The notes: generated from the sequence alone by a model not told the origin. A stretch of DNA of 64,000 nucleotides from Elusimicrobiota bacterium (GCA_016212795.1 JACRDT010000015.1:132770-196769), one strand, 5' to 3'. Counted from the stretch's first letter, positions 26,089 through 43,725 are shown. Program-made: numbers and translations.

Positions 26089-28917
26089 TCAAGAAGCCGC
26101 CGGCGCGGACACGGAGGCAGTCAGGAATGCGGCCAGGGCCGAGCGCACTTCCATGGCCGTCTGCGGCCGGCCCGCGGGATCGGCCTTGAGGCAGCGGGCC
26201 ACGAGTTCCTTGAGCGCCGGGGGGACATCCTCGGGCAGGGGGCGGTACGCCTCCGCGCGCTTCTGCGCGGCGGGATCAGGACCCCGGAAGGGAATCTCGC
26301 CTACGAGCATCTCGTAGGCCGTCGCCCCGAGCCCGAAGAGGTCCGACCTGGCCGAGGAGCGCCCCTCGTGCTGCTCGGGCGCCATGTAGGCCAAGGTCCC
26401 GGAGACCCCGCTCTCCCGGATGGACTGGCCTCCCGCCGTCTCCCGAGCCAGCCCGAAATCCATCACCTTGACCTGGCCCCGGCGGTCGACCATGACGTTG
26501 CCGGGCTTCAAGTCCCGGTGCACCACCCCTTTGCCGTGCGCGTGCTCCAGGGCCGCGGCGATCGAATCGAGCAGCCGGGCGCACTCCCGGGCCGGGACCC
26601 GGCCGCGGTGGGCGATGAGGGCCGAGAGGGTCTCTCCGTCGACGAACTCGAGCACGAGGTAGAAGGTCCCGGCCCCCTCGATGAGCTCCGCCAGGCCCAC
26701 GATGTTGGGATGGCTCAAAGCCGCCAGGATGCGGGCCTCGTTCCTCAAGTCCTCGCGGTGGCTGGAACTGGCTGCCAGCTCCCCACGCAGCCTCTTCAAG
26801 GCCACGTCCCGGCCGGTCTTCAAGTCCTTGGCGCGGTAGACGATCCCCATCCCGCCGACCCCGGCCGACTTGAGCAGCAGGTAGCGCTCGTTGATCAACC
26901 CCGCCCGCTCCTTGTCCTCCAGGCTCCTCAGGAGCGCCGCCATGTCCGCCCCGGCCGTCGCCGCTTTGGCCGCGGTCGCGGTCGTCGTCAGGGTGGCGAT
27001 GAGCCGGGATTCCTCGGCCGGGATGGCCTCCAGGTTCCTCATCCGCTCCGACAGGTCCTTGAAGGAGCCGACGGCCGCGAGCAGCGCCTTGTAGACCGCC
27101 TGCGCCCGGTCGAACGCCCCGGCCTTCTCGCAGGCCAGCCCGAAATAGTAATGGACCTCCGGGGCGCTCTCGACGCTCAGGACCTTCGCCAGGTCCGCGT
27201 AGAGCCGCGCCGCCTCGGGGAAGCGGTCGAGGCGGTTGAAGACCCTCAGGCCCAGGCCGTAGCCCCGCGCCCCCCACTTGGACCTGGGCACGCTCTCGAG
27301 GACCTTGAGGCCCCGCTCCTCCAGGCCCGCCTCGGCCAGGGCCTCGGCCAGGAGCAGGCGGTGAGCCTCGGGGATGGAGGCGGGATCGAGCGTCTCCAGG
27401 CTGCCCAAGCCCGCGTGGGCCCGGATCAAGACCGGATAATCCGCCGGATCGAGCCTGCCCTTGGCCTTGAGGAGTTCCAGGGCGGACGCGCTCGCTCCCA
27501 ACTCCTGGAAGGCCTGGGCATAGCCTGACCAGAACTCAGGGGAACGCTCCTTGGAGCCCGCGCGTCCGAGGAACTCCCACCCGGCCTTGGCGGTGATGAA
27601 GTGCCCCGCCACGACCATCGCGTCGGCCTCCTCGCGGGAAGCCGTCCTCAACAGTTCCTCATCGAGCATCCCCAGGGCCTCATCCCAAAGCCCCATGCCG
27701 GAGAAAGCGTTGGCCAGGGTCAGGCGCTCCCAGTAGGTCCGGGCAGCCAGCCCGCCCCTCCTCAGGCGCAGGACCTTGTCGATGATCCCGAACAAGGCCG
27801 CCTGCTCCCGGTCCAGGCCGCGGCCCTTCTTCAGGAGCGCGTGGGCGGCCTCGTAGTCTCCCGCCGCGAGGAAGGCCCGTGCGAAGGCCTGGGGAGCGTC
27901 CTCGGCCGCTCCGCCGCGGGATGTGCTGCTAAAGAGCGCCAGGAACTCCTGGACCTTGCGCCGCTCGACGCATAACCGCGCAAGCTTGAGTCGTTCCTCG
28001 GGGCTATTGAGGGCCGCCAGCAACTCCGGCAGGCCCGGCTTCCAGCGGTCTTCGAGCCGGGCGGGAAGGTCCCCGGCCCCGGACGCGGCGGCGGCGCCAG
28101 AACCATCGGTCGGAACTTGGGCAGGCTTGGCCAGGACTTTCCGGATAATGAAGACGAGCCCGCCCAGCACGGCCAGGCCCGCCAGGCCCGCGAGGACGAC
28201 CACAAACAGCGCCTGCGACTCCCCCAGCTTGAAGCGCTTGCCCGCGTCTTCAAGCTCGCGGCCGCGCAGGGCCAGGGCGTCCGACGGGAAGAGCTTGGCT
28301 GCCGAGGAAAGGTCCTCCAGGGCCGCGTCATATTCCCGGGCGGCCGCGCGCTCATCGACCTTGCGAAGGAGCGTCAGGTACTCCTCGAGCCGGGCGGCCC
28401 GGCCCATCGCCTTGCCATGGACCTCCTCCCCCCGGTTCTTGCCGGGGCCGTCGGCAAGAGCGGCCTTGAAAGCCGCCAGGGCCTCCGGCATGCGATGGGA
28501 CGCCAGCAGGGCCTCCCCGAAGTAATAGTTCCAGACCGCGGCCGGCTGGGCCTTGCCCACCGACTCGAACTGCGCGACGGCCTTTCCATGCTCGCCTGAC
28601 AGGAGATAGACGGAGCCGAGCCAGTTTCGGGCCTCGAGGTTCGAGGGGTCATCCGCCAGGATGGACTCGAAGCCCGCGGCCGCGTCGGCGAACTTCCCCT
28701 GTCGGGCCAGCCCGACAGCCTTCTCCAAACCGGCCCGGGCGGCCTGGGCGCGGCCCCGCGCCGCCAGCCCGCCGTCGATGGCCCCAGGCGGCGTCACGGC
28801 CCGCAACGGCTTTGCCTTCCCCGAAGAGGATGCCGCGCAGGCCGGAACCGCGCTGGCCGCGGCCAGGGCGAGCGCCAGAAAGCCGGCCGAAATCCGGTCC
28901 ATGCGCGCGATGATCAT
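26089..28917 (-). CDS. membrane Ser/Thr protein kinase with exported TPR region, TM, cytoplasmic TPR-like repeats and C-terminal canonical kinase domain
   Basis: Signal peptide FLALALAAASAVPACAA. TM ALFVVVLAGLAGLAVLGGLVFII. GGMGIVYRA, VALKRL, HRDLKPGNVMV, DFGLAR, YMAPEQ. Confidence 0.85.
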   Translation of the reverse strand: MIIARMDRISAGFLALALAAASAVPACAASSSGKAKPLRAVTPPGAIDGGLAARGRAQAARAGLEKAVGLARQGKFADAAAGFESILADDPSNLEARNWLGSVYLLSGEHGKAVAQFESVGKAQPAAVWNYYFGEALLASHRMPEALAAFKAALADGPGKNRGEEVHGKAMGRAARLEEYLTLLRKVDERAAAREYDAALEDLSSAAKLFPSDALALRGRELEDAGKRFKLGESQALFVVVLAGLAGLAVLGGLVFIIRKVLAKPAQVPTDGSGAAAASGAGDLPARLEDRWKPGLPELLAALNSPEERLKLARLCVERRKVQEFLALFSSTSRGGAAEDAPQAFARAFLAAGDYEAAHALLKKGRGLDREQAALFGIIDKVLRLRRGGLAARTYWERLTLANAFSGMGLWDEALGMLDEELLRTASREEADAMVVAGHFITAKAGWEFLGRAGSKERSPEFWSGYAQAFQELGASASALELLKAKGRLDPADYPVLIRAHAGLGSLETLDPASIPEAHRLLLAEALAEAGLEERGLKVLESVPRSKWGARGYGLGLRVFNRLDRFPEAARLYADLAKVLSVESAPEVHYYFGLACEKAGAFDRAQAVYKALLAAVGSFKDLSERMRNLEAIPAEESRLIATLTTTATAAKAATAGADMAALLRSLEDKERAGLINERYLLLKSAGVGGMGIVYRAKDLKTGRDVALKRLRGELAASSSHREDLRNEARILAALSHPNIVGLAELIEGAGTFYLVLEFVDGETLSALIAHRGRVPARECARLLDSIAAALEHAHGKGVVHRDLKPGNVMVDRRGQVKVMDFGLARETAGGQSIRESGVSGTLAYMAPEQHEGRSSARSDLFGLGATAYEMLVGEIPFRGPDPAAQKRAEAYRPLPEDVPPALKELVARCLKADPAGRPQTAMEVRSALAAFLTASVSAPAAS

Positions 28918-29300
28918 CGGGCGGGCCGAAGGCCGACGACGTTACTGCGGTAGGCCGGGGCGAACCAGGGGCGGTACGCAGCCCGCAAGTCGTCGGCGCT
29001 GCAGATCCAGGAGAAGTCCCCGCCGAGGGCCTTGGGATAGAGCGCGAAGGTCCGGCCCCCGTCCCCGGAGAGGCTCAAGCCGACGTCGAACACCCTGTTC
29101 TCGGGATTGTCCAGCCGGTAGAATATCAACACCCGCCCGGAGGCGTCCTGCTCGAAACGCGCAGATGTCTCCTTTCGAGCGAGACCCGCCGGAGGCTCAG
29201 GAGGGACAAGCTCGGCAACAGCCATCGTGCGCGCGCGGGCCGGCCCCAGGGAAACGGCCAGAAGGGCTCCCGCAACCAGCCTCCCCCAGCGCGGCCTCAT
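28914..29300 (-). CDS. 128-aa secreted protein, paralogous to the signal peptide, N-domain and extreme C-terminus of the FGE-domain protein at 29617..30717 (FGE domain missing)
   Basis: MRPRWGRLVAGALLAVSLGPARA and ARFEQDASGRVLIFYRLDNPENRVFDVGLSLSGDGGRTFAL align with MSARWVRLAGGFLLAAALGPGRA and ARFEQDASGLVRISYRLDNPENRQFDVSLSLSRDGGRIFAL. It ends VGLRPAR versus LGLRPARSR. ATGA overlap with the kinase start. Confidence 0.6.
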   Translation of the reverse strand: MRPRWGRLVAGALLAVSLGPARARTMAVAELVPPEPPAGLARKETSARFEQDASGRVLIFYRLDNPENRVFDVGLSLSGDGGRTFALYPKALGGDFSWICSADDLRAAYRPWFAPAYRSNVVGLRPAR

Positions 29301-29465
29301 GGCCCAGCCGAGTCCTTCTCCGATGGGCCCTCCAAGTCGTCCCTCTGATCGAGGAGCACCTGTTTGAGGTCTTCGTAGCTCACCAGAGATATGATACTCT
29401 GATTGCATAAGAAAGTCAGGTATCATGCAGTTGACTGCACAAGAATAGTCATATCCCAGGAGAAG

Positions 29466-29503
29466 TTATCCACAAAACTTTCCCGGGAAAGTCCGGTGGA
29501 TAA
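29466..29503. promoter_or_regulatory. 38-bp nested palindrome TTATCCAC-AAAA-CTTTCCCGGGAAAG-TCCG-GTGGATAA in an AT-rich intergenic region
   Basis: Read directly. The outer arms equal the DnaA-box core TTATCCAC(A). On the minus transcript the inner hairpin is followed by UUUU (terminator-like). Confidence 0.4.
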
Positions 29504-29616
29504 CCCGAAGCCTCCCTCAAGGACGCGTCAAGACGCTGCCGACGCGGACACGGAGGACATTAAGGAACGCGGCCAGGGCCGAGCCCCCCTCCGCCAAGCT
29601 CCCAAGAGCCGAGAGG

Positions 29617-30717
29617 TCAACGGGACCTCGCCGGGCGCAACCCGAGGAGGTCGTAGCTGCGGCCCGCGTCGCGGTAGTAGCGGAACGCGGTCCGGGCGTT
29701 CCCGGCGGGGAGGCTCCAGGAGCCGCCGCGAAACACCCGGCCCGAACCCCTGGGGCTTTCCCATGCGCTGCCGTCGACCGGCGCGCCATCGTACGAGCCA
29801 TGATACCAATCCTGCGTCACCTCCCAGACATTGCCCGCCATGTCGCACAGGCCCTGCTCGGTGTTCCCGGCGGGCTTTGAGCATACAGGCCAGGTCGAAT
29901 CGCGGCCGCAGCCGACGCCGCCGTCGTCCATGACGGCTCTCGAGCAGCTCGCCTGCTCGTCGCCCCAAGGATATGCCCAGTCCTTGCCGGCGGAACGCGC
30001 CGCGTATTCCCATTCGGCTTCCGTCGGCAACCTCGCTCCCACCCACGCCGAGAACGCCTTGGCCTGGCTCCAGTCCACGCACACCACGGGCTGGCCGTCG
30101 CCTTGGAAGGACGCGGGCAGGTCGCCCTGTTTCCACGCCGAGCCGCTGTACACATAGCACGTCCCGTCGGCGACGTGCGCCGGCGAGCATGCGCCGGCGC
30201 TGACGCAAGCCCTGTACTGCTTGTTGGTCACCTCGGTCTTCGCCATGTATAAGCCCTTCACGGTCACCCGGTGGACGGGTTTCTCGTCGTCGGCCTCGCC
30301 AGCCTCCGAGCCCATCAGGAAGCTTCCGCCCGGGATGAAGACCCACTCGATGCCGGCCCGCTCCTCCGCGGGAGTCCCCTCCACCGCGAAGACGCAGTCC
30401 CGGCACGACAAGCCGGGGTAGTCCTTGTCGACATCCCAGGTGATGAGCTTGGGTCCCGACCCGGCGACCGTCCCGATATCCCCGGCAAGGGCCCTGGGAA
30501 GAAGGGCGAAGATCCGGCCCCCGTCACGGGAGAGGCTCAGGCTGACGTCGAACTGCCTGTTCTCGGGGTTGTCCAGCCGGTAAGATATTCGCACCAGCCC
30601 GGAGGCGTCCTGCTCGAAGCGCGCCGAACCGATGGAGGCCGCCCCATGCGCGCGGCCGGGCCCCAGGGCCGCGGCGAGGAGAAATCCTCCGGCCAGCCTC
30701 ACCCAACGCGCCGACAT
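29617..30717 (-). CDS. secreted FGE-sulfatase-domain protein (no catalytic Cys pair) with N-terminal beta-rich domain
   Basis: WVFIPGGSFLMG, GARLPTEAEWEYAARS, CDMAGNVWEVTQDWYH, RVFRGGSW. Start set at ATG 30717, which sits 7 nt after a perfect promoter. Confidence 0.8.
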   Translation of the reverse strand: MSARWVRLAGGFLLAAALGPGRAHGAASIGSARFEQDASGLVRISYRLDNPENRQFDVSLSLSRDGGRIFALLPRALAGDIGTVAGSGPKLITWDVDKDYPGLSCRDCVFAVEGTPAEERAGIEWVFIPGGSFLMGSEAGEADDEKPVHRVTVKGLYMAKTEVTNKQYRACVSAGACSPAHVADGTCYVYSGSAWKQGDLPASFQGDGQPVVCVDWSQAKAFSAWVGARLPTEAEWEYAARSAGKDWAYPWGDEQASCSRAVMDDGGVGCGRDSTWPVCSKPAGNTEQGLCDMAGNVWEVTQDWYHGSYDGAPVDGSAWESPRGSGRVFRGGSWSLPAGNARTAFRYYRDAGRSYDLLGLRPARSR

Positions 30718-32187: not shown

Positions 32188-34368
32188 ATGGAACGCCCCG
32201 TCATCGTCATCGCGATTTCCCTCACGGCGGCCGCCCTCCTGGCCGCGGGCCCGGCCGGCGCGCAGCTCGACGTGCCGGAGCCCCCCCTGTTCAAAGCCGT
32301 CGCGGAAGGAGACGTCCAGGAGGTCCGGCGGTCGCTGGCCTTGACTCTCTCACCCCGTGACCGGTGCTACATGGGCGAATCGATCGCGGCCCACGCCAGC
32401 GCCTACGGCGACCTGGAGATCCTCGAGCTGCTGGTCCAAGCCGGGGCTTCCCTCCAGGAAGAGGACTGCCGGGACGACTCCCCCCTCTACCACGCCGCGG
32501 AGCAAGGCCACGCGAAGGCCGTGCGCTTCCTCCTCTCGAAGAAGGCCGACGTCAAGTTCAGGACCGGCAACGGCTCGACCCCTCTGCTGGCGGCCGTCAC
32601 GGGCCCGCTGTTCCAACGGGGACCGAAGGGCGACGCCCGGGAGACCGTCCGCCTCCTCCTCGAGGCCGGCTCCGACCCCGACGCCGAGAACCGGTTCGAG
32701 CAGACCCCCCTGCTCCTCGCCGTGCGCCGCGCCGACGCCAGGCTCGCCCGGCTGCTCTTGGACCGCAAGGCCGACCCGCGCCGGAAGAACGGGCGCGGCG
32801 TCAGCGCCCTCGACCTGGCCAGGCAGGCGGGCCTGGACTACATGGTGGCCGTCCTCGAGAAGCGCGCTCGCGCCGAGCCGACCCGCCCCGGCCGCAAGCT
32901 CATCGACGCGGCCCAAGCCGGCGATCTCGCCGTCGTGGACAAGCTCGTCAAGGAGGGCGCGCCGCTCGACGCCCTCGACGAGGGCGGCAGCACGCCGCTC
33001 ATCCACGCCGCCTTCATGGGCCACGAAGCCGTCGGGGTGGCGCTCGTGAGAGCCGGCGCGGACGCGGGCGCCAGGAACCAGAGCAACGACACGGCGCTCA
33101 TCTACGCCGCCGCCAGGGGCTGCGCCGGCCTCCTCAAGGCCCTGCTCGACCGCGGCGCCGACCCGCTCGCCCGGGACCACTTCCGCGGCACCGGCCTGTC
33201 CTACGCGGTCCGGGAAGGCAAGCCCGAGACCGCCGCCCTCCTCCTGGCCCGCGGCGCGCCCCCGGACGAGAGCGACGACGACGGCAAGACCCTGCTCATG
33301 GAGGCGGCCGTCGCGGGCGACGCGGCCTTGGTCCGGACCCTCCTCGACGGCCAGGCCGCCGTCGACGCCGTCGACAAGTACGGCCGCTCGGCCCTGATGC
33401 ACGCGCTCAAGGAAGGCAAGGACGCCGTCGCCCGCGTCCTCATCGAGCGGGGCGCCGACACCGTGAAGGCGGACAAGGACGGCGCGACCCCGATGCGCTA
33501 CGCGGCCCAGGCCCGGCTCCCCGACATCGCGTCCCTGCTCCTCCAGCGAGGGTCCCGCCCCGACCCAGACGCGCTCCTGGCCTCCATCGCCAACTGGGAT
33601 GTCGCCAGCCTCAAGCTCCTGCTCAAGAACGGGGCGGACCCCGACGGCAAGACGGACGGCAAGCTCCCTCTCGTGGAGGCCGCCGGGGCGTACAGCGACA
33701 AGCTGGCGCTGACCACGCTCCTCGTGGAGGCCGGCGCGGCCGTCGACGCGAGCGACGACGAGGGGAACACGCCGCTCATGAAAGCCGCCGAGTGGGACAA
33801 CGAGGAGTCGACGGCGACCCTCAAGTACCTGCTGGCCCGCGGGGCCGACCCCAAGGCCAAGGACAAGAAGGGCATGACGGCCTGGACCCGCGCCATGCTC
33901 AACGGGCACGACGCGGCCGCCGCGGCCCTGCGGAGCGCCGGCGCGGCGGCGGCCTACGACACCCTCGGATGGCGGGGGTCCAACCTGGACGGCGACGAGA
34001 AGACCGCGGCCGTCGTCTCGGACCAGGCCGGCTGGGAGCGCGTCTGGCGGCGGATGCGGCGCGACCCCGGGGGCCCCACCATCGACTTCAAGGGCTTCGT
34101 CGTGGTCCTCGTCTCCCTCGGCAGGATCCCGGGGCCGGAGTGCCCGTCCGTCGCGTTCAAGGAGCCGGTCCTCGCCGGGGGCGTGACGACCGTCGACTAC
34201 GACATCCACCCCGGAATCGTCTACGACGCCCCCTGGACGACCCCCTACGCGGTCAAGGTGTTCAAGCGCCCGAAAGCCGGCAAGATCGTGGTCAAGGAGC
34301 CTCCGGACCTCTCCTCCTCCCGCGGCAGGTTCGGGCCGGGGGATGGGCCGGGCTTCCTCCGGGAGTAG
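32188..34368 (+). CDS. secreted ankyrin-repeat protein (more than 12 ANK repeats) with a non-ANK C-terminal domain
   Basis: Signal peptide VIVIAISLTAAALLAAGPAGA. Many repeats of the G.TPL..A...G......LL..GAD pattern. Confidence 0.85.
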   Translation: MERPVIVIAISLTAAALLAAGPAGAQLDVPEPPLFKAVAEGDVQEVRRSLALTLSPRDRCYMGESIAAHASAYGDLEILELLVQAGASLQEEDCRDDSPLYHAAEQGHAKAVRFLLSKKADVKFRTGNGSTPLLAAVTGPLFQRGPKGDARETVRLLLEAGSDPDAENRFEQTPLLLAVRRADARLARLLLDRKADPRRKNGRGVSALDLARQAGLDYMVAVLEKRARAEPTRPGRKLIDAAQAGDLAVVDKLVKEGAPLDALDEGGSTPLIHAAFMGHEAVGVALVRAGADAGARNQSNDTALIYAAARGCAGLLKALLDRGADPLARDHFRGTGLSYAVREGKPETAALLLARGAPPDESDDDGKTLLMEAAVAGDAALVRTLLDGQAAVDAVDKYGRSALMHALKEGKDAVARVLIERGADTVKADKDGATPMRYAAQARLPDIASLLLQRGSRPDPDALLASIANWDVASLKLLLKNGADPDGKTDGKLPLVEAAGAYSDKLALTTLLVEAGAAVDASDDEGNTPLMKAAEWDNEESTATLKYLLARGADPKAKDKKGMTAWTRAMLNGHDAAAAALRSAGAAAAYDTLGWRGSNLDGDEKTAAVVSDQAGWERVWRRMRRDPGGPTIDFKGFVVVLVSLGRIPGPECPSVAFKEPVLAGGVTTVDYDIHPGIVYDAPWTTPYAVKVFKRPKAGKIVVKEPPDLSSSRGRFGPGDGPGFLRE

Positions 34369-34380
34369 CGCGGTGTCAAG

Positions 34381-35121
34381 CTACCAGCCTTGGATCCGCG
34401 TGAAGCCGCCGTCCCCGCGCACGATGAAGGCCGAGCCGCCGCGCTGCTCGCCGGCGAGGCCCTTGGCCCTCCACTGGACGGCCAGGACGATGGCCGCGAC
34501 CGGGTCCGCGAGCGTGCCGACGTTGCTGACGGCGAGCACCTTGGCGGCCATGGAGAGCTCGTACCCCGCCCTGACCTCGACCGTGGTCGGCTGGACCGAC
34601 ACCCCGGTCAGGAACCTCCCTTTGCCCGCGTAGCGCCCGCCCGTCGTCCTCACGACCGAATAGGCGACGCGGGCCGCCGGCAGGCCGACGACGTCCTTGA
34701 CCTCGAACTCGAACCGGTCCGCCTCGGCCCCGGACCACTGGCACAGCCCCGTCCAATCGCGCAGGCCCTCGGGAAGGGCCGCGGCGAAGCGCTGGCCGGC
34801 GTCCGGCAGCACCGCGTTGTTCTCGACGATCTTCCACGAAGCCCGGCCGGCGTTCACGATCGTCGCGAGGTCCACCTCCGGGCCGGCGGCGCCGCGCATC
34901 ATGCAGGACGCCGCGACCTCGCCCAGGAAGTCCCGGAAGCCGCGGCCCACGGCGTCGAAGTCGACCCTCGGGAGGTCCCCGACGCCGCCGGCCGCGCCGG
35001 GGGACCCCAGACGCCCTTCGGGCGCCGCCCCCGGCACGGCCGCGAGCGGTACCAGGCCGGCCGCCACCGCCGTCGAAGCCGTCAACGCCGCCGCGACCAA
35101 CACGCTCGTCGCCCCTCTCAT
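34381..35121 (-). CDS. secreted hypothetical protein carrying hairpin-element copy C near its N-terminus
   Basis: GGAGGTGAG SD before ATG 35121. Signal peptide MRGATSVLVAAALTASTAVAA. No family recognised. Confidence 0.55.
   Translation of the reverse strand: MRGATSVLVAAALTASTAVAAGLVPLAAVPGAAPEGRLGSPGAAGGVGDLPRVDFDAVGRGFRDFLGEVAASCMMRGAAGPEVDLATIVNAGRASWKIVENNAVLPDAGQRFAAALPEGLRDWTGLCQWSGAEADRFEFEVKDVVGLPAARVAYSVVRTTGGRYAGKGRFLTGVSVQPTTVEVRAGYELSMAAKVLAVSNVGTLADPVAAIVLAVQWRAKGLAGEQRGGSAFIVRGDGGFTRIQGW
34993..35063 (+). repeat. GC-rich hairpin element copy C (core 34993..35042), antisense to its host gene
   Basis: CGCGCCGGGGGACCCCAGACGCCCTTCGGGCGCCGCCCCCGGCACGGCCG. The host reads it as AAVPGAAPEGRLGSPGAAG. 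Confidence 0.85.
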
Positions 35122-35314: not shown

Positions 35315-35986
35315 ATGGCCAGACCGGCCCTCCCCAAGGGCGAGAAGACCCGCCAGAACATCATCCGGACCGCGCTGCGGCTCGTGGCCAAGCGGGGCTT
35401 CAGCGAGACCAGCTTCCAGATGATCGCGGACGCCCTGGGCCTCAGCCAGTCCGCGGTCCTGTACCATTACAAGACCAAGTACGCCCTCTTCGAGGACACC
35501 ATCAAGACCATCGTGCGGCACAACCACGAGACGGTCAACGCACTGACGCGCATGACGGACAACGCCGGCCAGCGCCTCGTCAAGCACTGCCTGGGCAACG
35601 TCCTCTGGGCGCATCGCTATAGGGCGGACGGCCAGGTCCTCATCCTCCTCTATTACTTCGCCTGCTTCGAGAGGAAGTTCACCTCCCTCTTCACGCAGAT
35701 GATGGAGCGCGGCCGCGAGAGGCTCATGGTCCACCTGCTGGCCGGGGAGAGGGAAGGGCTGTTCCGCTTGCCGTCCGGGCCGGCCACCGCGGCCGAGACC
35801 CTGCAGGACGCGCTGTTCGGCGCGATGCTCCACGCCATCTCGGCCCCGGAGGGCAGCGTCCCGCGCGGGGAGCTCGAGGGCAAGTGGCGCCAGGTGGTCG
35901 CGGCCCACACGGGCTGGACCGATCCCCGCCCGTCTCTAGTCACTCTACCCTCCCCGCGGGAGGGTAGAGTAGGGGGAGGCGAGTAG
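35315..35986 (+). CDS. TetR/AcrR-family transcriptional regulator
   Basis: KTRQNIIRTALRLVAKRGFSETSFQMIADALGLSQSAVLYHYKTK HTH motif. The last ~15 codons are encoded by the hairpin element. Confidence 0.85.
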   Translation: MARPALPKGEKTRQNIIRTALRLVAKRGFSETSFQMIADALGLSQSAVLYHYKTKYALFEDTIKTIVRHNHETVNALTRMTDNAGQRLVKHCLGNVLWAHRYRADGQVLILLYYFACFERKFTSLFTQMMERGRERLMVHLLAGEREGLFRLPSGPATAAETLQDALFGAMLHAISAPEGSVPRGELEGKWRQVVAAHTGWTDPRPSLVTLPSPREGRVGGGE

Positions 35987-36035: not shown

Positions 36036-38648
36036 ATGACACCCGCGAAGAACCGCTTCGTTTTCGGACGATGGGAGACGGCCGGGCCCCTCACTCCCGA
36101 GGACGCCTCCCGCATCGGCGGCCAGGCCCGGACGGCCATGCCCGCCCTCGCGGACTATCCCGTCGACAAGATCCTCTCCCTGCTCGGCCGGACGGCCGAC
36201 CGCTGGGCCGGCCCGCGGTCCGGCCTGCGCCGCGAGGCGCTGCGCCGGCTGCCCGCCATCACCGGCTTCTCGCCCGCGATGGTGGCCAAGGGGCTCGACG
36301 AGCTCTGCTGGACCCTGGACCCCGGCCTGCTGGCGAGGAAGCTCGAGACGGAACTGCGGCCCGACGCCGCCCCCCAGCGGCTGATCTGGGAGCCCCTGGG
36401 GGTCGTCCTGCACGTCCTGGCCGGCAACGTCTTCGTGGGCGCGGCCGGCGCCCTGGTCGAGGGGCTCGTCACCCGCAACGTCTCCATCCTGAAGATGCCC
36501 TCCGCCGACACCTTCTTCCTGCCGGCGCTCCTGCGCTCTCTGGCCGAGCTCGACCAAGACGGCGTGGTCGCCGGGTCCGTGGCGGCCGTCGAGTACGGCT
36601 CGGGCCAGCAGGACGTCATCGACCGCTTCAAGTCGTCCGTGGACGCCGTCGCGGTGTGGGGCGGCGAGGGCTCCGTCCGGGCGTACCGCGATGGGCTGCC
36701 GGCCAGGACGAGGCTGCTGGTCTTCGGCCCGAAGATCAGCCTGGCGGTCGTGACAAAGGAAGGGCTTGAGGAAACGGATCTCGCCTCAACGGCCCGACGG
36801 CTGGCCGCTGAGGCGAGCATATGGGACCAGAACGCCTGCACGGCGCCCCAGGTCTGCTACGTGGAAGGAGAGCGCGCGGCGCGCGCTCTCGTCGAAGCCC
36901 TCCCGCAAGCCTTCGAGGCGGCGGCCCGACGCCTGCCGCCCGGCGCGATCGGCCGGGACAACGCCGTCGAGATCCAGAAGCTGCGCGCCATCGCTTCGGT
37001 CGCCCAAGGCCGCGGGGAAGGGGTCCTCAAGCGCTCCCCCCGCGGGCTGGACTGGACCGTGATCCTCGACCGGGACCTCACCCTGGAGCCCTCCCCCCTG
37101 CACCGGACGCTGCGCGTCGCGCCGTTCCGGGACGTCTCGGAAGTCCTGGGGCAGATCGAGTCCCTGCGGGGGTACATCCAGACCGTCGGGCTCGTGGCGT
37201 CCGCGGGCGAGCAGCGCGGCCTGGCCGAAAGCCTCGCCCGAGCCGGAGCCCTGCGCGTCCTGGAGCTGGGCGCGATGGCCTCGGGGGAGATCGACGACCC
37301 GCACGACGGCCAATACGACCTCCCCCAGTACATGAACCTCGTCATCGGGCGGGTCGGCAGGACCCGGGGCTCCACCCTGCACCTGCCCGAGGCCGAGAGG
37401 CGGCGGCTCGTCGACGCGCGCCTCCGATGCCTCGTCGCGGCGGCCCGGCGCTCCGCGTTCTACGGCAAGCGGCTCAAGGGGCTGACCCTCGAGACCGCCG
37501 CGGACCTGCCCCGGGTGCCCGTCCTCACCCGGTCCGAGATGGAGGCGAACATGCCCCCCCAGGGCGACGGGCTCTCCACGGGCCCCTGGGCGGGCGGGTA
37601 CGTCTCGCGCAGCGGCGGCTCGACCGGCGAGCCCAAGTTCTCGGTCTACGACCGGCACGACTGGGACGCCATGATCTCGAGCGCCGTCGACGTCTTCAGG
37701 GACATGGGCTTCGCCGAGGACGACCGGCTGGGCAACTTCATGCTGGCCGGGGACCTCTACGGGAGCTTCGTCTCCTTCGACCACATCAACGCCAGGCTCG
37801 GGCTCACGAGCTTCGCGTTCGCCGGGAATTCCAACCCCGAGACGTTCGTGAAGGTCTGGAGGAAGTTCCGCCTTACGGCCGTCCAGGGGATACCCTCCCA
37901 CCTCCTGCCCTTCCTCCGGCGAGCCAAGGAGCTTGAGCCGGGCCTGACCCTGCGCAAGCTCATGTACGCCGGCGTCCCCCTGGCCCCCTCCGACTACGAC
38001 TGGCTCAAGGCCTCCCTCAAGGTCGAGCGCATCGCCTCGGTCATCGGCGCCAACGACGGGGGGCAGATCGCCTACCAGTGCCCCATGATGCGGGGGGCCG
38101 CGCACCACGCCGTCGACGAGTTCAACTTCCTCGAGGTCGTCGACGGCAAGGACCGCCCCGTGCCGGAGGGCCAGGCCGGGCAGATCGTCATCACGAGCCT
38201 CCTCAAGCTCGCCTTCCCCCTCATCCGCTACGCTCTCGGCGACAGCGCCCGGATCGTCCCCCGGCCCTGCCCCTGCGGCGGGACGGCCCGGGTGATCGAG
38301 TACCTGGGCCGCTGCGACGACGTCCTCGCCGTCGGCATGCTCAACGTCCGCTACCGCGACTTCCAAGACGCGCTCGGGCGCTTCCCCGTCTCGGCCCTCC
38401 AGCTGGCCGCGACGAACGACGCCAGGGGCGAGTCCGTCGTGGTGCGGGTGGAGACCGGCGCGCCGGCGTCCGGCGACGGCCTGGCCGAGCGCATGCGCCG
38501 GTCCATCCTCGCCGCCATGGAGAAGGTCCGCGAGCGCCTCGCCGCCGGCGCCCTGGCCGGGCTGCGCGTCGAGCTCTTCGGCCCCGGCGAGCTTCCCCGC
38601 AACCTTCGGAGCGGCAAGGTCAAGGCGCTCGTCGACGAGAGGCGATGA
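36036..38648 (+). CDS. fusion protein: LuxC-like acyl-CoA reductase (N, ~430 aa) + PaaK/coenzyme-F390-synthetase-like adenylate-forming enzyme (C)
   Basis: N-terminal half: LHVLAGNVF, ILKMPS, IWDQNACTAPQVCYV (LuxC-type catalytic Cys context). C-terminal half: SRSGGSTGEPKF, IVITSL...PLIRYALGD, PCPCGGTARVIEYLGRCDD as in PaaK-like ligases. Confidence 0.7.
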   Translation: MTPAKNRFVFGRWETAGPLTPEDASRIGGQARTAMPALADYPVDKILSLLGRTADRWAGPRSGLRREALRRLPAITGFSPAMVAKGLDELCWTLDPGLLARKLETELRPDAAPQRLIWEPLGVVLHVLAGNVFVGAAGALVEGLVTRNVSILKMPSADTFFLPALLRSLAELDQDGVVAGSVAAVEYGSGQQDVIDRFKSSVDAVAVWGGEGSVRAYRDGLPARTRLLVFGPKISLAVVTKEGLEETDLASTARRLAAEASIWDQNACTAPQVCYVEGERAARALVEALPQAFEAAARRLPPGAIGRDNAVEIQKLRAIASVAQGRGEGVLKRSPRGLDWTVILDRDLTLEPSPLHRTLRVAPFRDVSEVLGQIESLRGYIQTVGLVASAGEQRGLAESLARAGALRVLELGAMASGEIDDPHDGQYDLPQYMNLVIGRVGRTRGSTLHLPEAERRRLVDARLRCLVAAARRSAFYGKRLKGLTLETAADLPRVPVLTRSEMEANMPPQGDGLSTGPWAGGYVSRSGGSTGEPKFSVYDRHDWDAMISSAVDVFRDMGFAEDDRLGNFMLAGDLYGSFVSFDHINARLGLTSFAFAGNSNPETFVKVWRKFRLTAVQGIPSHLLPFLRRAKELEPGLTLRKLMYAGVPLAPSDYDWLKASLKVERIASVIGANDGGQIAYQCPMMRGAAHHAVDEFNFLEVVDGKDRPVPEGQAGQIVITSLLKLAFPLIRYALGDSARIVPRPCPCGGTARVIEYLGRCDDVLAVGMLNVRYRDFQDALGRFPVSALQLAATNDARGESVVVRVETGAPASGDGLAERMRRSILAAMEKVRERLAAGALAGLRVELFGPGELPRNLRSGKVKALVDERR

Positions 38649-38661
38649 CGAGGGGGGCCTG

Positions 38662-39906
38662 ATGCTCATCGCCCGCAACCGGGACATGCTCCTGCTGTGG
38701 CTCGGGCAGGTCCTCAGCCAGGCCGGGACCCGCATGCACCAGATCGCCCTGGCCTGGTGGATCGTGACCTGGGCCTCCGGCCCAGGGGCGGGAGGCTCCG
38801 GCGCCAAGCTCGGGACCTTCATGGTCGCCGGGGCCCTGCCGGCCATCCTCCTGGTCAAGGTCATCGGGCGCACGGTCGATGAGAACCCCTCCCGGCGGGT
38901 CCTGGTGGCCGCCGACGTCCTCTCGGCCGCGGTCGCGGCCGTCATGGCCGCGGCCCTGGCGGCCTCGCTGCTCGATTTCGCCTGGGCCTGCGCCGGGGGG
39001 TTCGTCCTGGCCGGGCTGCAGGCCTTCTTCGACCCCGCGCTCAACAAGGCGGTGTCGGAGGTCGTCGAGCCCCGGGACATCGAGGAAGCGGTCGCCTTCC
39101 AGTCGTCGACCCAATCCCTCGCGAGCTTCGCGGGCGCGGTCGCCGGCGCGCTCCTCATCGAGCGCCTCGGCATCGCGGGGGTGGTCAGGCTCAACGCCGC
39201 GAGCTTCCTGCTCTCCGGGGCGCTCAACGCGTGCCTGCGCATGAAGCACGCCCGGCCGGCGACCCCCGAAGCCCAACAGCCCGGGCTCTCGGGGTGGGCC
39301 ATCGTCAACCGGATGCCCCTCGTCAAGAAGGTGCTGCTGGGGTTCGGCTTCGTCAACTTCTTCATGACCCCGATCCTGGTGGTCCTGCCCCTGTACGTCA
39401 AGGAGACGCTCTCCGGCTCGGCTTCGCTCCTCGGGGCGCTCGAGGCCGGCCTCTGGGTGGGCCTCGTGACGGGCACGGCCGTCGCCGGCTGGCGGGGGTT
39501 CCCCAAGGACACGCTCCGCCTGGGCGCCTGGTGCCTGGCCGTCATCGGCGGGTGCCTCGCCGTCCCGGGCGTCGTCGCGGCGGCGCCGCTGTTCCTCGCG
39601 CTGCTCTTCATCGCCGGGGCGGCGCTCGGCGTCAACAACGTCAAGTTCGTCGCGCTCTTCCAGGTCGCGGTCGCGCCCGAGCACAAGGGCAGGTTCTTCG
39701 CCCTGATGGCCGCGCTCGTCAGCTTCACCTTCCCGGTCGCCTTCTTCCTCTTCGGCATGCTCGCGGACGTGCTCAAGCCGCAGCACGTGTGCCTCATCCA
39801 AGGGCTGGGGATCCTGGGGCTCGCCGCCTATTTCGCCAGGCTCGCGGCTGTCGCGCGCACCCCCTGCGGGGGGGCAAGCATCGGAGGGGCATGCCAGACC
39901 GCATGA
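38662..39906 (+). CDS. MFS transporter (EntS/MFS_3-like)
   Basis: NRDMLLLWLGQVLSQAGTRMHQIALAWWIV N-terminus. About 12 TM segments. Confidence 0.75.
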   Translation: MLIARNRDMLLLWLGQVLSQAGTRMHQIALAWWIVTWASGPGAGGSGAKLGTFMVAGALPAILLVKVIGRTVDENPSRRVLVAADVLSAAVAAVMAAALAASLLDFAWACAGGFVLAGLQAFFDPALNKAVSEVVEPRDIEEAVAFQSSTQSLASFAGAVAGALLIERLGIAGVVRLNAASFLLSGALNACLRMKHARPATPEAQQPGLSGWAIVNRMPLVKKVLLGFGFVNFFMTPILVVLPLYVKETLSGSASLLGALEAGLWVGLVTGTAVAGWRGFPKDTLRLGAWCLAVIGGCLAVPGVVAAAPLFLALLFIAGAALGVNNVKFVALFQVAVAPEHKGRFFALMAALVSFTFPVAFFLFGMLADVLKPQHVCLIQGLGILGLAAYFARLAAVARTPCGGASIGGACQTA

Positions 39907-41105
39907 CCTGCCGCTGGGCCACGCCCTCCGACGACCCCGCCATCCGCGCCCTCTGCGCCGGGCGGCCCGCCGCCGCGAAGGACCGCTCGTCGCTCCCGCG
40001 CCCATCGGGCATCGCGTCGGCGTTCCGGGACGCGGTCGAGGCAGGAGGCCGAGCGTCCCGGCCGTCCTCGGGAATGGCGTCGACGGGCCGGGAGACGGCG
40101 TGGGCCGTCGCCGAGGAGGACGGCGCCATCGTCGCGGCGGCGCTCGTGAGCGTGGAGCCGGCGACCCGGCTGGGCAAGCTGCAGTCCCTGCGCGCCGACG
40201 GCCCGGCGGAGCGCCGGCCGCCGCGCCTGCGGGACCTGGCGGGGTTCCTGACCCGCCACTTCCAGGAGGCCGGCACGGTCGACCTCCTCTACGGCACGAC
40301 TCGCAACCTCAGCATGGAGGAGCAGTCCGCGACCGTCGCCGCGGGCTTCAAGGTGCTGGGGGTCTTCCCCGGCGCCGTCGCGGCCGACCCCACGGCGACC
40401 ACCGGGCTGGCCGCCTGGTACGCCCCGGGGGTCCTCGCGGACAAGCGCCACGCCGACTTCGCCCTCCACCCGGCCATCGCGCCGTTCTACGACATCGCGG
40501 CGAGCCAATGCGGCCTGGCAAGCCTGCCCCCGGCGGCCCAGCCCCTGGGCCCGGCGGCCTTCCCCCAGCCCGAGGCGCCCGCGCCGTCCCGGGCCCTGCT
40601 CGAGGTCATCGATGCCCCCGCCTTCGCCGCCGAGCGCTTCCGGCGGCTCAAGGAGCGCCGCAGCCTCTCCGTGAATTTCTACCCCTTCACGGACCCCAAC
40701 GTCATCCTCATGAGCGCCGACGAGAGCATCCAGGTCTTCGCGTCCCTGTCCCGCGAGGTGCGCTTCGCCACCATCATCGGGGAGCACCTGCGCGCGGGCA
40801 CCGACCCGGTGCAGCTCTACAGCGAGGCCCTCCGCCTGCTCCACGGACATGGCGCCCTCTATATCGAGGTCATCAACGACGCCGCCGACGCGGCGGGCAT
40901 CGAGTACATCCTGCGCGCCGGCTTCTCCCCCTGCGGCTACGTCCCGTGCCTCAAGCTCCTGGGCGACAAGCGCCGCGACTTCGTGGTCTTCGCCAACTCC
41001 AAGGAGACCGCGGTCCAGCCCGGGCGCGACCACCCCGAGCACCGCCGCTTCTTCGAGGAGTACGTCAAGATCAGCCTGGGCGGCTGGCCCCCCAAACGAC
41101 CGTGA
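39903..41105 (+). CDS. double-domain GNAT-like protein, paralog 1 (N-terminal acetyl-CoA motif degenerate)
   Basis: ATGA overlap with the MFS gene. The C-terminal half aligns by eye with 42526..43695 (FYPFTDPNVILMS / FFPFHEPNLLLVA; YIEVINDAADAAGIEYILRAGFSPCGYVP / YLELLTSAYHPEVVKRIMDARFLPSAYYP). Confidence 0.5.
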   Translation: MTCRWATPSDDPAIRALCAGRPAAAKDRSSLPRPSGIASAFRDAVEAGGRASRPSSGMASTGRETAWAVAEEDGAIVAAALVSVEPATRLGKLQSLRADGPAERRPPRLRDLAGFLTRHFQEAGTVDLLYGTTRNLSMEEQSATVAAGFKVLGVFPGAVAADPTATTGLAAWYAPGVLADKRHADFALHPAIAPFYDIAASQCGLASLPPAAQPLGPAAFPQPEAPAPSRALLEVIDAPAFAAERFRRLKERRSLSVNFYPFTDPNVILMSADESIQVFASLSREVRFATIIGEHLRAGTDPVQLYSEALRLLHGHGALYIEVINDAADAAGIEYILRAGFSPCGYVPCLKLLGDKRRDFVVFANSKETAVQPGRDHPEHRRFFEEYVKISLGGWPPKRP

Positions 41106-42529
41106 ACATCCTCCTCGTCAACCCCCTGCTGGCCCCCGACAGGACCCCGGAGACGTGCAACCTCGGGCTGGCCTACATCGCAAGCGCCCTCCGCCAGGAC
41201 GGCCACCGCCTCACCGTGCTGGACCTGGACGCCCGAAGGATGCCCCCCGAGCGGGTCCGCGAGGTCCTCGCCAAGACCGACTTCGACGCCGCGGGCATCG
41301 GGACGCTCGTCAGCGGCTTCCGCTCGACCCGCTGGCTGACTCGGCAGATCAGGGAGCTCAAGCCCCAAGCCCACATCTGGGTGGGCAACAGCATCGCGAC
41401 GCCCATCCCCGAGGTCATCCTGCGGGAGATGCCGGTGGACGTCGTGGCGCTCGGCGAGGGCGAGGCCACCGTCCGGGAGCTGGCCCGGGCGACGGAACGC
41501 GGGGAGGACCTCTCGTCGGTCGCGGGCATCGTCTACCGGGGCCCCGGCGGCCCGGTCGCGACGGCCCAGCGCCCCGTCATCGCGGACATCGACTCCATCC
41601 CGATGCCGGCCTGGGACCTCTTCCAGCAGGACGTCTACACGAAGTCCTCCACGGCCGGCATGCCCGGTCCCAAGATGTACGTGATCACGACCCGCGGCTG
41701 CCCCTATCGCTGCACCTACTGCTACCACCCCTTCCAGAACGTCAAGGTCCGGTTCCACTCCGCCGAGCGCGTGGTCGCGGAGATCGCGGAGCTCCAGGGC
41801 CGCTACGGGGTCAGGAGCATCCACTTCGGCGACGACCTCTTCGTGGTCGACAAGAAGCGCGTCTACGAGATCTGCGACCTGATGGAGAAGCGCCGCGTCA
41901 AGGTCCTCTGGAGCGCCGCCAGCCGCGTCAACACGCTCGACGAGGACATGCTCAAGCGCATGAAGAGCGCCGGCTGCGTCGTCCTGGGGTTCGGCATCGA
42001 ATCCGGCAGCCAGACGATCCTCGACAACATCAAGAAGCGCACGACCGTCGCCCAGGGGCTCGACGCGGTCAGGCTCTGCCGGAAGGTCGGCATCGAGGCC
42101 GCCTGCAGCTTCATGATCGGCAACGTCGGCGAGACCCCCGAGACGGTGGCGGCCAGCGTCGACTTCATCAAGCGGGCCGACCTGCCGCCGACGGTCTTCT
42201 TCTTCACCACGCCCTACCCGGGCACCGAGCTCTACGAGCACGGCCGGGCCGCCGGCCTCATCAAGGACGAGGTGGCCCTCTTCGAGTCCTACGGGGAGCA
42301 GAACGACCAGTTCCTGGTCAATTTCACCGGCATGACCGACGCCGAGCTCCTGCGCGTGAAGAAGGCCGCCGAGGACCGGCTGCTCGTCGACTACGGGCGG
42401 CGCCACCCCCTGCGCTGGCTGCGGCACATGGGCCGCCACCTGCGCCACAACGTGCGCAACTACGGCTGGGCGGCCGTCCTGCGGCGCATCGTCCGCAGGC
42501 TGGGCCGCCTGGTTCGGAGCCGGCCATGA
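41102..42529 (+). CDS. B12-binding-domain radical SAM enzyme
   Basis: GTGA overlap. N-terminal Rossmann-like NILLVNPLL...GLAYIASAL...DVVALGEGE. TTRGCPYRCTYC CxxxCxxC motif. Confidence 0.8.
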   Translation: MNILLVNPLLAPDRTPETCNLGLAYIASALRQDGHRLTVLDLDARRMPPERVREVLAKTDFDAAGIGTLVSGFRSTRWLTRQIRELKPQAHIWVGNSIATPIPEVILREMPVDVVALGEGEATVRELARATERGEDLSSVAGIVYRGPGGPVATAQRPVIADIDSIPMPAWDLFQQDVYTKSSTAGMPGPKMYVITTRGCPYRCTYCYHPFQNVKVRFHSAERVVAEIAELQGRYGVRSIHFGDDLFVVDKKRVYEICDLMEKRRVKVLWSAASRVNTLDEDMLKRMKSAGCVVLGFGIESGSQTILDNIKKRTTVAQGLDAVRLCRKVGIEAACSFMIGNVGETPETVAASVDFIKRADLPPTVFFFTTPYPGTELYEHGRAAGLIKDEVALFESYGEQNDQFLVNFTGMTDAELLRVKKAAEDRLLVDYGRRHPLRWLRHMGRHLRHNVRNYGWAAVLRRIVRRLGRLVRSRP

Positions 42530-43695
42530 AGAGCTCCCCCGGGCGGAAGGCCCGGCTCAAGAAGCCGGCCGCCGTCATCCGGCGGGCGACCCCCGAGGAC
42601 GCCGACGAGCTGCGGCGCATGTACCACGACGTCTACGAGGGCAAATACACCCTCAGCATCATCTACGACGCCGACGAGACCGCCGACGCCCTCAAGAAGG
42701 ACGACGTCCATTGGTTCGTGGCCGAGGACGCCGGCCGGATCGTGAGCTCCGTCATCTTCTCCGTCGAACGGGACCTCAAGCTCGCCAAGGTCTTCGGGGC
42801 CGTGGTCCTTCCAGAGTACCGGGGCTCGGACCTGACCGAGCGCGCCATCGCCATGGGGCTCGCCTCGATCATCGACGAGGAAGGCCAGGCCCACAGCGCC
42901 TACGCCACCGCCCGCACGATCTCGCCCGCCCCCACGCGCCTCCTGCGCAACCTCGGGTTCGCGGACCTGGGGGTGCTGCCCAACGTCCGCAAGGTCCAGA
43001 ACTACGAGACCCACTGCATGTGCGCCTACTTCCGCAAGGGGGCGCTGGCCGACCGGGTGGTCCCGCCCAGGCTCCCGACCGCGCTCAAGCCCTTCTACTC
43101 CATCGTCCGGCGCGCCACGGGCATCGGGGACGCCGAGTGGCACGAGCTCCCCATCGAGCCCTCCTCCCCGTACGCCGGCAAGTGGATCGAGTTCGAGATC
43201 ATCGAGGCCCCGCACTACATCCTGGGGCGCTGGAAGGCGCTCAAGGCCGAGCACAAGCTCAAGATGCAGTTCTTCCCCTTCCACGAGCCCAACCTCCTGC
43301 TCGTGGCCAAGGACCGCCCCGCGGAGATCTACGTCTACTACTCCAAGTCCGACCACTACGCGGCCATCATCGGGGGCCACGAGCACGTCCCCGACCTGAC
43401 GCACCTGCTCAACTCGATCGTCATGGCCCTCGAGGAGCACGGGGCGCGCTACCTGGAGCTCCTGACCTCGGCCTACCACCCGGAGGTCGTCAAGAGGATC
43501 ATGGACGCGAGGTTCCTGCCGAGCGCCTACTACCCCGCCCTGCGGTGGAACCACGGGCAGGGCCACGACTACATCGTCTTCAGCAAGTCCTTCGTGCTGC
43601 TGGACTTCAGCAACATCGTGGCCGAGGGGCTCGTCAGCGACTACATGCGGGAGTACTTCAACCTCTGGCGGGCGCTGTACATCAGGGGCGTCTGA
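42526..43695 (+). CDS. double-domain GNAT-family protein, paralog 2
   Basis: ATGA overlap. IRRATPEDADELRRMY and VVLPEYRGSDLTERAIAMGL (R-x-x-G-x-x-type CoA motif). Confidence 0.6.
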   Translation: MKSSPGRKARLKKPAAVIRRATPEDADELRRMYHDVYEGKYTLSIIYDADETADALKKDDVHWFVAEDAGRIVSSVIFSVERDLKLAKVFGAVVLPEYRGSDLTERAIAMGLASIIDEEGQAHSAYATARTISPAPTRLLRNLGFADLGVLPNVRKVQNYETHCMCAYFRKGALADRVVPPRLPTALKPFYSIVRRATGIGDAEWHELPIEPSSPYAGKWIEFEIIEAPHYILGRWKALKAEHKLKMQFFPFHEPNLLLVAKDRPAEIYVYYSKSDHYAAIIGGHEHVPDLTHLLNSIVMALEEHGARYLELLTSAYHPEVVKRIMDARFLPSAYYPALRWNHGQGHDYIVFSKSFVLLDFSNIVAEGLVSDYMREYFNLWRALYIRGV

Positions 43696-43725
43696 CCCCA
43701 GGGCGGGCCGGGGCCGGCCCGGCGC

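Follow-up and report, generated by a model that had tools for sequence, protein, structure and literature searches.

The 64-kb window considered here, meaning the whole stretch of DNA analyzed, contains a short hairpin-forming element that is read as part of a protein immediately behind an N-terminus resembling a signal peptide. This arrangement raises the question of whether the unit of interest is the peptide or the DNA that encodes it. The preliminary description left two alternatives. In one, the element multiplies as DNA and proteins put up with it in their surface or linker regions; in the other, the encoded peptide has a function of its own in exported proteins.

The copy at issue, copy C, spans 34993–35064 on the plus strand (CGCGCCGGGGGACCCCAGACGCCCTTCGGGCGCCGCCCCCGGCACGGCCGCGAGCGGTACCAGGCCGGCCGC). 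These boundaries come from an alignment of the copies, which keeps the start originally given and moves the end from 35063 to 35064. The host gene (34381–35121, minus strand) encodes a 246-aa protein that falls in no Pfam family. Its ATG is at 35121 rather than 35122, with a GGAGGTG ribosome-binding site 5 nt upstream. GC3 is 0.94 for the open reading frame (ORF) and remains at about 0.9 or more on either side of the element, so the host is a genuine coding frame. The protein starts MRGATSVLVAAALTASTAVAAG-LVPLAAVPGAAPEGRLGSPGAAG-GVGDLPRVDF..., and the first of these segments (35056–35121, minus strand) combines a positive n-region, an Ala/Val/Leu-rich core, and an A-x-A motif, as do the N-termini of two orthologues described below. 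It is a predicted signal peptide. Copy C is translated antisense as AAGLVPLAAVPGAAPEGRLGSPGA; the insert encoded by the element starts directly after ...TAVA, and the insertion point is the predicted junction of signal peptide and mature protein. The original account of an antisense element in a minus-strand gene, placed after a signal-peptide-like N-terminus, was thus correct in sequence, strand, peptide, and position. An AlphaFold2 model of the host, made from a three-sequence alignment, has a pLDDT that averages 49.5 and drops under 30 at the element, too low for placing the insert on the fold.

The surroundings of this gene provide a useful anchor for comparison with other genomes. A TetR-family gene (35315–35986, plus strand) is divergent from the host and serves as the synteny anchor. 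Beside the TetR gene, the region 36036–45138 encodes a LuxC-like acyl-CoA reductase/AMP-binding fusion, an MFS transporter, two B12-binding radical SAM enzymes, a GT2 glycosyltransferase, and two genes without Pfam matches, a combination that resembles no obvious known pathway. Immediately downstream of the host and convergent with it is a gene (32188–34368, plus strand) for a 726-aa ankyrin-repeat protein. Its N-terminus resembles a signal peptide, and its repeats have a period of 99 nt.

Copy C belongs to a family. Repeat finding and alignment located five intact copies in the 64 kb (A1, A2, B, C, and D), all on the plus strand, where 0 are expected by chance. The unit is 62–69 nt long with a GC content of about 80%. 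A 41-nt core searched with at most three mismatches has two matches in the window against 0.00 expected (100 shuffles), the second at 61460 with two mismatches. A covariance model built on nine copies, which include those from other genomes, scores the window copies at 70–86 bits (E 1e-11 to 1e-13) and copy C at 76.7 bits. All copies, including those in other metagenome-assembled genomes (MAGs), score 70–97 bits against a background of at most 28 bits, and the top noncopy matches are the same palindromes on the opposite strand. These results confirm the presence of a repeat family far beyond chance.

The other copies reside in very different genes. Copies A1 (4465–4536, plus strand; 86.4 bits) and A2 (4534–4605, plus strand; 75 bits) form a 69-nt tandem pair, differ only in their last bases, and lie within a 401-aa, weakly ROK/ASKHA-like protein (P0004; 3718–4923, plus strand). 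Copy B (6665–6736, plus strand; 81 bits) lies in the gene for a zinc-ribbon protein with a transmembrane segment (6042–7475, plus strand), within a low-complexity linker behind that segment. Copy D (61456–61527, plus strand; 69.8 bits) is found in the Pro/Ala/Gly-rich N-terminal region of a protein of about 1600 aa with AAA_5 and VWA domains (57052–61866, minus strand).

A probable sixth copy, D2 (61223–61265, plus strand), appears to have decayed within the host gene of copy D, in the same frame. It scores 21.5 bits (E 0.04), four of its 30 arm positions are mismatched, and 6 nt are missing from its inner hairpin; in a relaxed arm scan none of 40 shuffles reached four or fewer arm mismatches. 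A weak match of the model at 3954–4022 has mismatches at 7 of 30 arm positions and was rejected as a copy because it encodes a GAPG...HPGTVPN motif that is conserved in orthologues free of the element. The uniform plus orientation of the four independent loci in the window is only suggestive (p about 0.06–0.125). GC skew is negative on the plus strand throughout, and since most genes are also on this strand, skew was not used to assign leading and lagging strands.

Each copy forms three helices. The outer stem pairs GCCGGGGG with CCCCCGGC, the inner stem of 5 bp (CGCCC/GGGCG in copy C) has a TTC loop, and the second hairpin reads CGGCCGG...CCGGCCG. In the nine-copy alignment, 94% of the cells at paired positions are standard pairs, against 32–54% when the partners are slid by one to three columns. 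The outer stem is invariant, and one pair of the inner stem swaps between C-G and G-C. In all, 28 arm positions are invariant over nine copies and four genomes, while the internal loops and the tail vary, and the arms can be described by the pattern GCCGGGGGACCCC-N19-CCCCCGGCACGG. The hairpin is clear from these comparisons; the covariation is modest, and the pairing measure stops short of proving selection for it. Rfam gives no match to the element at gathering thresholds or at E ≤1, and a sub-threshold match to Actino-ugpB falls outside the element.

The ends are less well defined than the arms. Terminal inverted repeats are limited to an imperfect 7–8 nt, 5' GCGCCGG against the reverse complement of 3' CCGGCCGC. 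Neither GTAG nor CGTC is present at the foot of the stem, where one strand has CGC-GCCGGGGG and the other GCCGTGCCGGGGG. The sequence GCCGGCC(GC) closes the element in eight of nine copies. It is found on both sides at A, C, and L001 (three of seven sites), and B, D, L003, L004, and L005 are not preceded by it. These flanks could be a target-site duplication, a preferred target, or the remnant of a tandem insertion.

When one genome per GTDB species was scanned for exact matches, the element turned up at four loci (L001, L003, L004, and L005) in three MAGs of groundwater Elusimicrobia. Together with the five copies in the window, this gives nine known copies, which represent seven independent insertions. 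A candidate in an alphaproteobacterial MAG (L002) matches in the arms, has neither inner hairpin nor tail, and reaches 19.6 bits; it was rejected because such a chance match is expected in 596 Gb. Scans with the exact pattern recovered nothing from JGI metagenomes or from viral contigs. The window has five copies in 64 kb compared with one or two exact copies per related genome, a density that suggests expansion of the repeat in the lineage of the window. No description of the hairpin repeat was found in the published literature searched.

Related genomes with empty sites speak most directly to how copy C came to be in its gene. The two homologues of the host, P0002 (225 aa, 57% identity) and P0003 (221 aa, 55% identity), align with it from end to end except for a clean gap of 21–25 aa exactly at the element, which supplies the comparison with insert-free orthologues that the preliminary description had proposed. 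The best homologue, which has the TetR neighbour as well, is annotated as Elusimicrobia, and the window probably derives from a related MAG of that group. P0002, at locus L006, adjoins a divergent TetR gene just as the host does in the window, so the site in L006 is orthologous and empty. It reads GCCTGCCGC-CGG-CGCCAG. Compared with L006 and L007, the copy C site has 66 nt in place of one CCG codon, a net gain of 63 nt.

A second empty site is found at A. Orthologues of the A host in metagenome contigs L008 (48% identity) and L009 (33%) lack the tandem 2 × 23 aa, with the missing insert measuring roughly 43–46 aa. The host at L004 and L005 is an RmlD-like reductase (PF04321), in which the insert sits between conserved blocks, just ahead of an RPxxSxL motif. 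Alignment of this host to solved RmlD/MAT2B structures ends one residue before the element; when the 23 aa of the element are deleted, the alignment carries on past the junction into the RPxxSxL motif, and its score rises. At C and A, therefore, related genomes differ in the presence or absence of the element, and the case for mobility draws on these two sites only.

The reading frames bear on what is being maintained. All nine copies lie inside stop-free ORFs, with GC3 of 0.73–0.98 on both sides. The element is sense to transcription at four loci and antisense at three, and three different frames are used. Frame f1 (sense), the frame used in host A, gives RAGGPHTAFGPHPRHGRNRNPAG in A1. Frame f2 (sense) gives APGDPxRPSxxxPGTAGxGxxPA in the hosts of B (APGDPLRPSAAAPGTAGVGISPA in the window), L001, L004, and L005, and frame r1 (antisense) gives xPAVPGxxPEGRxGSPGA in the hosts of C, D (GDSVMQLPAVPGVAPEGRLGSPGA), and L003. 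The used frames are free of stops and encode peptides rich in Pro/Gly/Ala or in Gly/His/Arg. The three unused frames are Arg-rich, with stops in some copies. The original statement that the complement frame of every copy would give a near-identical peptide is true by arithmetic; in the window, only copies C and D are actually translated in this frame, and A and B, in plus-strand genes, use the two others.

The host proteins are unrelated to each other. They comprise an orphan exported protein, the AAA_5 and VWA protein, two zinc-ribbon membrane proteins, a Glucodextran_C-domain protein, the RmlD-like enzyme, and the ROK-like protein. The hosts of B and L001 were considered as possible orthologues, as both are zinc-ribbon membrane proteins that read the element in the same frame, yet they proved nonorthologous and are counted as independent insertions. 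The insertion points are the signal-peptide junction, low-complexity linkers past transmembrane segments, and a probable loop of the RmlD-like enzyme. Five of seven hosts appear exported or membrane bound, and the two with a cytoplasmic appearance, the RmlD-like reductase and the ASKHA/ROK-like protein, read the element in frames other than r1. Such a predominance of exported hosts agrees with insertion being tolerated in linkers, and not with the function of one peptide.

These observations make it very unlikely that xPAVPGxxPEGRxGSPGA is a functional module of exported proteins, such as a linker or a sorting or processing motif conserved at the protein level. The idea has some appeal, as the three hosts that use frame r1 (C, D, and L003) all have N-termini resembling signal peptides or membrane anchors and most hosts overall look exported or membrane bound. 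However, the linker content of exported proteins accounts for that excess, and the same element is also read as APGDPxRPSxxxPGTAG in four hosts and as RAGGPHTAFGPHPRHGR in another, with proteins lacking an export signal (RmlD-like and ROK-like) among these other-frame hosts. The r1 reading occurs in only three of seven independent insertions. Similarity between copies is highest at the nucleotide level, synonymous sites included, and orthologues of the copy C host exist without the peptide. The peptide LAAVPGAAPEGRLGSPGAAG is what the complement of the hairpin spells in that frame, a by-product. Of the two original alternatives, the spread of DNA tolerated in surface or linker regions is supported by clean empty sites in two hosts, by the use of three frames and both orientations, and by the insertion points. 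Function of the peptide in exported proteins finds no support, given the cytoplasmic-looking hosts and conservation that follows nucleotides.

Protein searches are in line with this. No Pfam domain covers the element or its peptide, and no other carrier proteins were detected. A six-frame chimeric peptide query against 5.8 billion proteins recovered only P0004 and P0001, both from the window; this search lacks power for single copies, for which a 23-aa match cannot reach significance. A three-frame profile run against 1.84 billion representatives recovered only P0004 and the unrelated tandem-repeat proteins P0005 to P0007, a result that is uninformative for single copies and excludes only a widespread, strong family. 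The proteome search for the AVPG-type peptide proposed at the outset thus found no further protein carrying it, with little power for single copies, and nothing in these searches placed the peptide in an established domain of unrelated taxa.

A different concern is whether the copies are an artefact, either of chance similarity between GC-rich, low-complexity sequences or of misassembly joining unrelated flanks through a repeat. With a genome GC content of 66–74%, long spurious ORFs and GC-rich matches are common. Short-read assemblers also break at dispersed repeats. The Logan contigs of SRR12113407, an independent short-read assembly from the same population, are 100% identical to the window on both flanks and end or start inside A1, A2, C, and D (contigs L010 to L014, with break points at 4488/4572, 35013–35016, and 61481 of the window). 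It is thus the MAG assembler that made the joins at these places, and it is also the only source for the tandem copy number at A. Against this, one independent contig runs through copy B, and in independent contigs each half of copy C carries the flank that belongs to it. In orthologues, the two flanks of A and those of C follow each other directly, which indicates that the assembly joins are right. No shuffle yields a match, the gap between the scores of copies and background noted above is wide, and the element also occurs in three other MAGs from other samples. The artefact reading is largely refuted by this evidence and must be considered extremely improbable.

Other features of the window are recorded here in their own right. 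A second repeat, unrelated to the hairpin repeat, is formed by 6926–7008 (plus) and 40027–40109 (inverted). The two members, of about 80 nt, show 80% complementarity and a perfect core of 22 nt (GGCCGGGACGCTCGGCCTCC), and no other inverted pair in the window comes near this length. One member lies within the host gene of copy B (6042–7475) and the other within a gene at 39891–41105, and more than one repeat family may be resident in frame in this genome. Adjacent paralogues of 518 and 512 aa without a Pfam family (46990–48546 and 48543–50081, plus strand) share blocks of 81–84% nucleotide identity at a spacing of 1535 nt, which points to a recent tandem gene duplication. Two separate gene pairs, each with a Ser/Thr protein kinase beside a protein with an FGE-sulfatase (formylglycine-generating-enzyme-like) domain, are found at 9984–13054 and 26089–30717 (both minus strand). 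A 149-nt repeat of 85% identity (29017–29165 and 30479–30627) suggests a partial extra copy of the 5' part of the FGE gene in a poorly coding gap (28917–29617). The segment 23770–26089 has a lower GC content (about 0.66) and gaps of 655 and 871 nt without high-GC3 ORFs, and it may be degraded or foreign. Between these gaps, a gene at 24426–25217 matches DUF4143 only and is much shorter than a 434-aa AAA_14+DUF4143 gene in L006, of which type it may be a truncated copy.

One comparison hints at something beyond passive residence. L004 and L005 come from different species with about 72% nucleotide identity in the RmlD-like gene, and the element occupies the same codon of this gene, adjoining rpsB, in both. 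Columns 4–50 of the element differ at only 1 of 47 positions, compared with 5 of 13 in the tail, a diverged 5' flank, and a divergence of about 28% over the gene. Third-codon-position identity is 0.83–0.85 in the element and about 0.55 gene-wide. A binomial estimate from these counts gives a probability of about 4e-6 for one or no difference in 47 at 28% divergence. This hints at constraint or homogenization acting at the nucleotide level. Three processes could account for the retained core in this one pair, namely constraint on the hairpin, homogenization by gene conversion, and separate insertions at a hot spot.

The hairpin might accordingly act, originally or by later change, as a functional nucleic-acid signal, in which selection keeps a DNA or RNA structure that a protein of the host or of the element binds, with the peptide still a by-product. 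The hairpin could then serve, for example, as a binding or cleavage site of a hairpin-recognizing enzyme or as a signal oriented with the chromosome strand. We regard this as unlikely, although several observations are in its favor. They include the near-identical core and the raised third-position identity in L004 and L005, the 28 invariant arm positions beside variable loops and tail, the one covarying pair of the inner stem, and the single chromosomal orientation of all copies in the window. On the other side, there is only one orthologous pair, and its pattern would also result from independent hot-spot insertion or from gene conversion by other copies. The occurrence of both sense (four loci) and antisense (three loci) copies argues against a strand-specific mRNA signal, a probable decayed copy lies at 61223–61265, orthologues manage without the element at two sites, and no Rfam family matches. 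Purifying selection on the nucleotides of the hairpin core after insertion, making it a dual-use sequence within coding DNA that these Elusimicrobia would retain in their genes, instead of inert selfish DNA, is similarly unlikely.

The account that best fits the evidence is that copy C is one unit of a nonautonomous palindromic repeat of the kind represented by the Rickettsia palindromic elements (RPEs), multiplied as DNA and tolerated in linkers and loops, and we consider this probable. The repeat would have multiplied in a lineage of high-GC groundwater Elusimicrobia. The unit in the tandem pair is 69 nt, a multiple of three; this length and the stop-free frames allow coding insertions to survive where about 21–23 flexible residues are tolerated. 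With about 93% of the window coding (47 genes), the finding that all four independent insertions in it are intragenic is expected of random, tolerated insertion.

Movement would be provided in trans by an enzyme that recognizes the conserved hairpin. A single-strand transposase (HUH/Y1, RAYT, or IS200/IS605-like) is the most attractive guess. Each unit has two subterminal hairpins and no long inverted repeats, GCCGGCC(GC) is conserved at or beside its ends, one tandem pair exists, and the orientation in the window is uniform. Pfam analysis of the 47 genes in the 64 kb revealed no transposase, neither TnpA nor RAYT, which counts against the proposal. The possible target-site duplication is also ambiguous, with GCCGGCC(GC) flanking both sides only in A, C, and L001, and the sample is small at nine copies and seven independent insertions. 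The orientation bias of the four loci has a p of about 0.125. Finally, a selfish insert that simply decays leaves unexplained why the core in L004 and L005 is retained beside a diverged tail and gene.

Among described phenomena, the closest parallel is the in-frame insertion of RPEs, which, in the summary given in PMC10969869, are palindromic repeats found in frame within unrelated genes (Ogata et al. 2000). Both types are palindromic, lie in frame in unrelated genes, add a peptide while leaving the host ORF intact, have insert-free orthologues, and encode no transposase. The RPE-like features present here are a repeated hairpin, in-frame intragenic residence, and insert-free homologues (of the C, A, and RmlD-like hosts). 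The Elusimicrobia repeat differs in its length of 62–69 nt, compared with about 100–150 nt for RPEs, and in its use of three frames and both orientations, compared with one conserved peptide per RPE family (PMC10969869). It is also found in free-living groundwater bacteria rather than in intracellular Rickettsia, and the sequences are unrelated; homology to the RPE consensus is implausible because of the GC content of about 80% and the Elusimicrobia host.

Other families of small palindromic repeats share fewer of these attributes. REPs are extragenic palindromes of 20–40 nt tagged by GTAG or CGTC at one end (PMC3733652), and REP, BIME, and REPIN elements with a RAYT are thought to be moved in trans by a hairpin-recognizing enzyme (PMC3733652, PMC2817692, PMC3116915). 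The Elusimicrobia repeat is similar as a short, GC-rich, imperfect palindrome with many copies, a conserved hairpin, and a tandem arrangement. However, none of its nine copies is intergenic, the unit is longer and has two hairpins, the foot of the stem has no GTAG or CGTC, and no RAYT gene is seen in the 64 kb around it. It thus fails the defining features of REPs, namely extragenic location and the GTAG/CGTC tag. Intragenic bacterial miniature elements of the MITE type include ERIC, Correia, Nezha, and others (reviewed in PMC10969869). The small, nonautonomous nature of the repeat, its presence or absence between relatives, its occasional in-frame fusions, and its stable stem-loops are all MITE-like. 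Typical MITEs, in contrast, are AT-rich and mostly intergenic, with clear terminal inverted repeats and target-site duplications (PMC10969869), while the ends of the Elusimicrobia repeat (GCGCCGG / CCGGCCGC) match over 7–8 nt at best and duplication-like flanks occur at three of seven sites. The repeat fits this class only partly.

Derivatives of the IS200/IS605 family are associated with palindromes and move by a single-strand "peel and paste" process (PMC6006769). The Elusimicrobia repeat resembles them in having subterminal hairpins at both ends in place of inverted repeats, a short conserved sequence abutting the end, and one-strand orientation over 57 kb, and a tandem insertion beside the element's own end would be plausible for such a system. 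It differs in that no TnpA or RAYT was found in the window, and target specificity and strand bias are drawn from three to five observations. IS200/IS605 derivatives are not known to reside systematically in frame within genes.

In-frame colonization of genes by palindromic repeats is documented mainly for the RPEs of Rickettsia and is generally seen as an oddity that goes with reduced intracellular genomes. Elements of this kind have practical consequences, as they break short-read assemblies and create "orphan" peptide segments in predicted proteins that can mislead those who search for motifs. If the conservation of the core in L004 and L005 holds, the repeat would be a tractable example of overlapping protein-coding and structural-DNA constraints. 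The occurrence of an unrelated element in three frames within the compact, high-GC genome of a free-living groundwater Elusimicrobia bacterium suggests that the phenomenon is more general.
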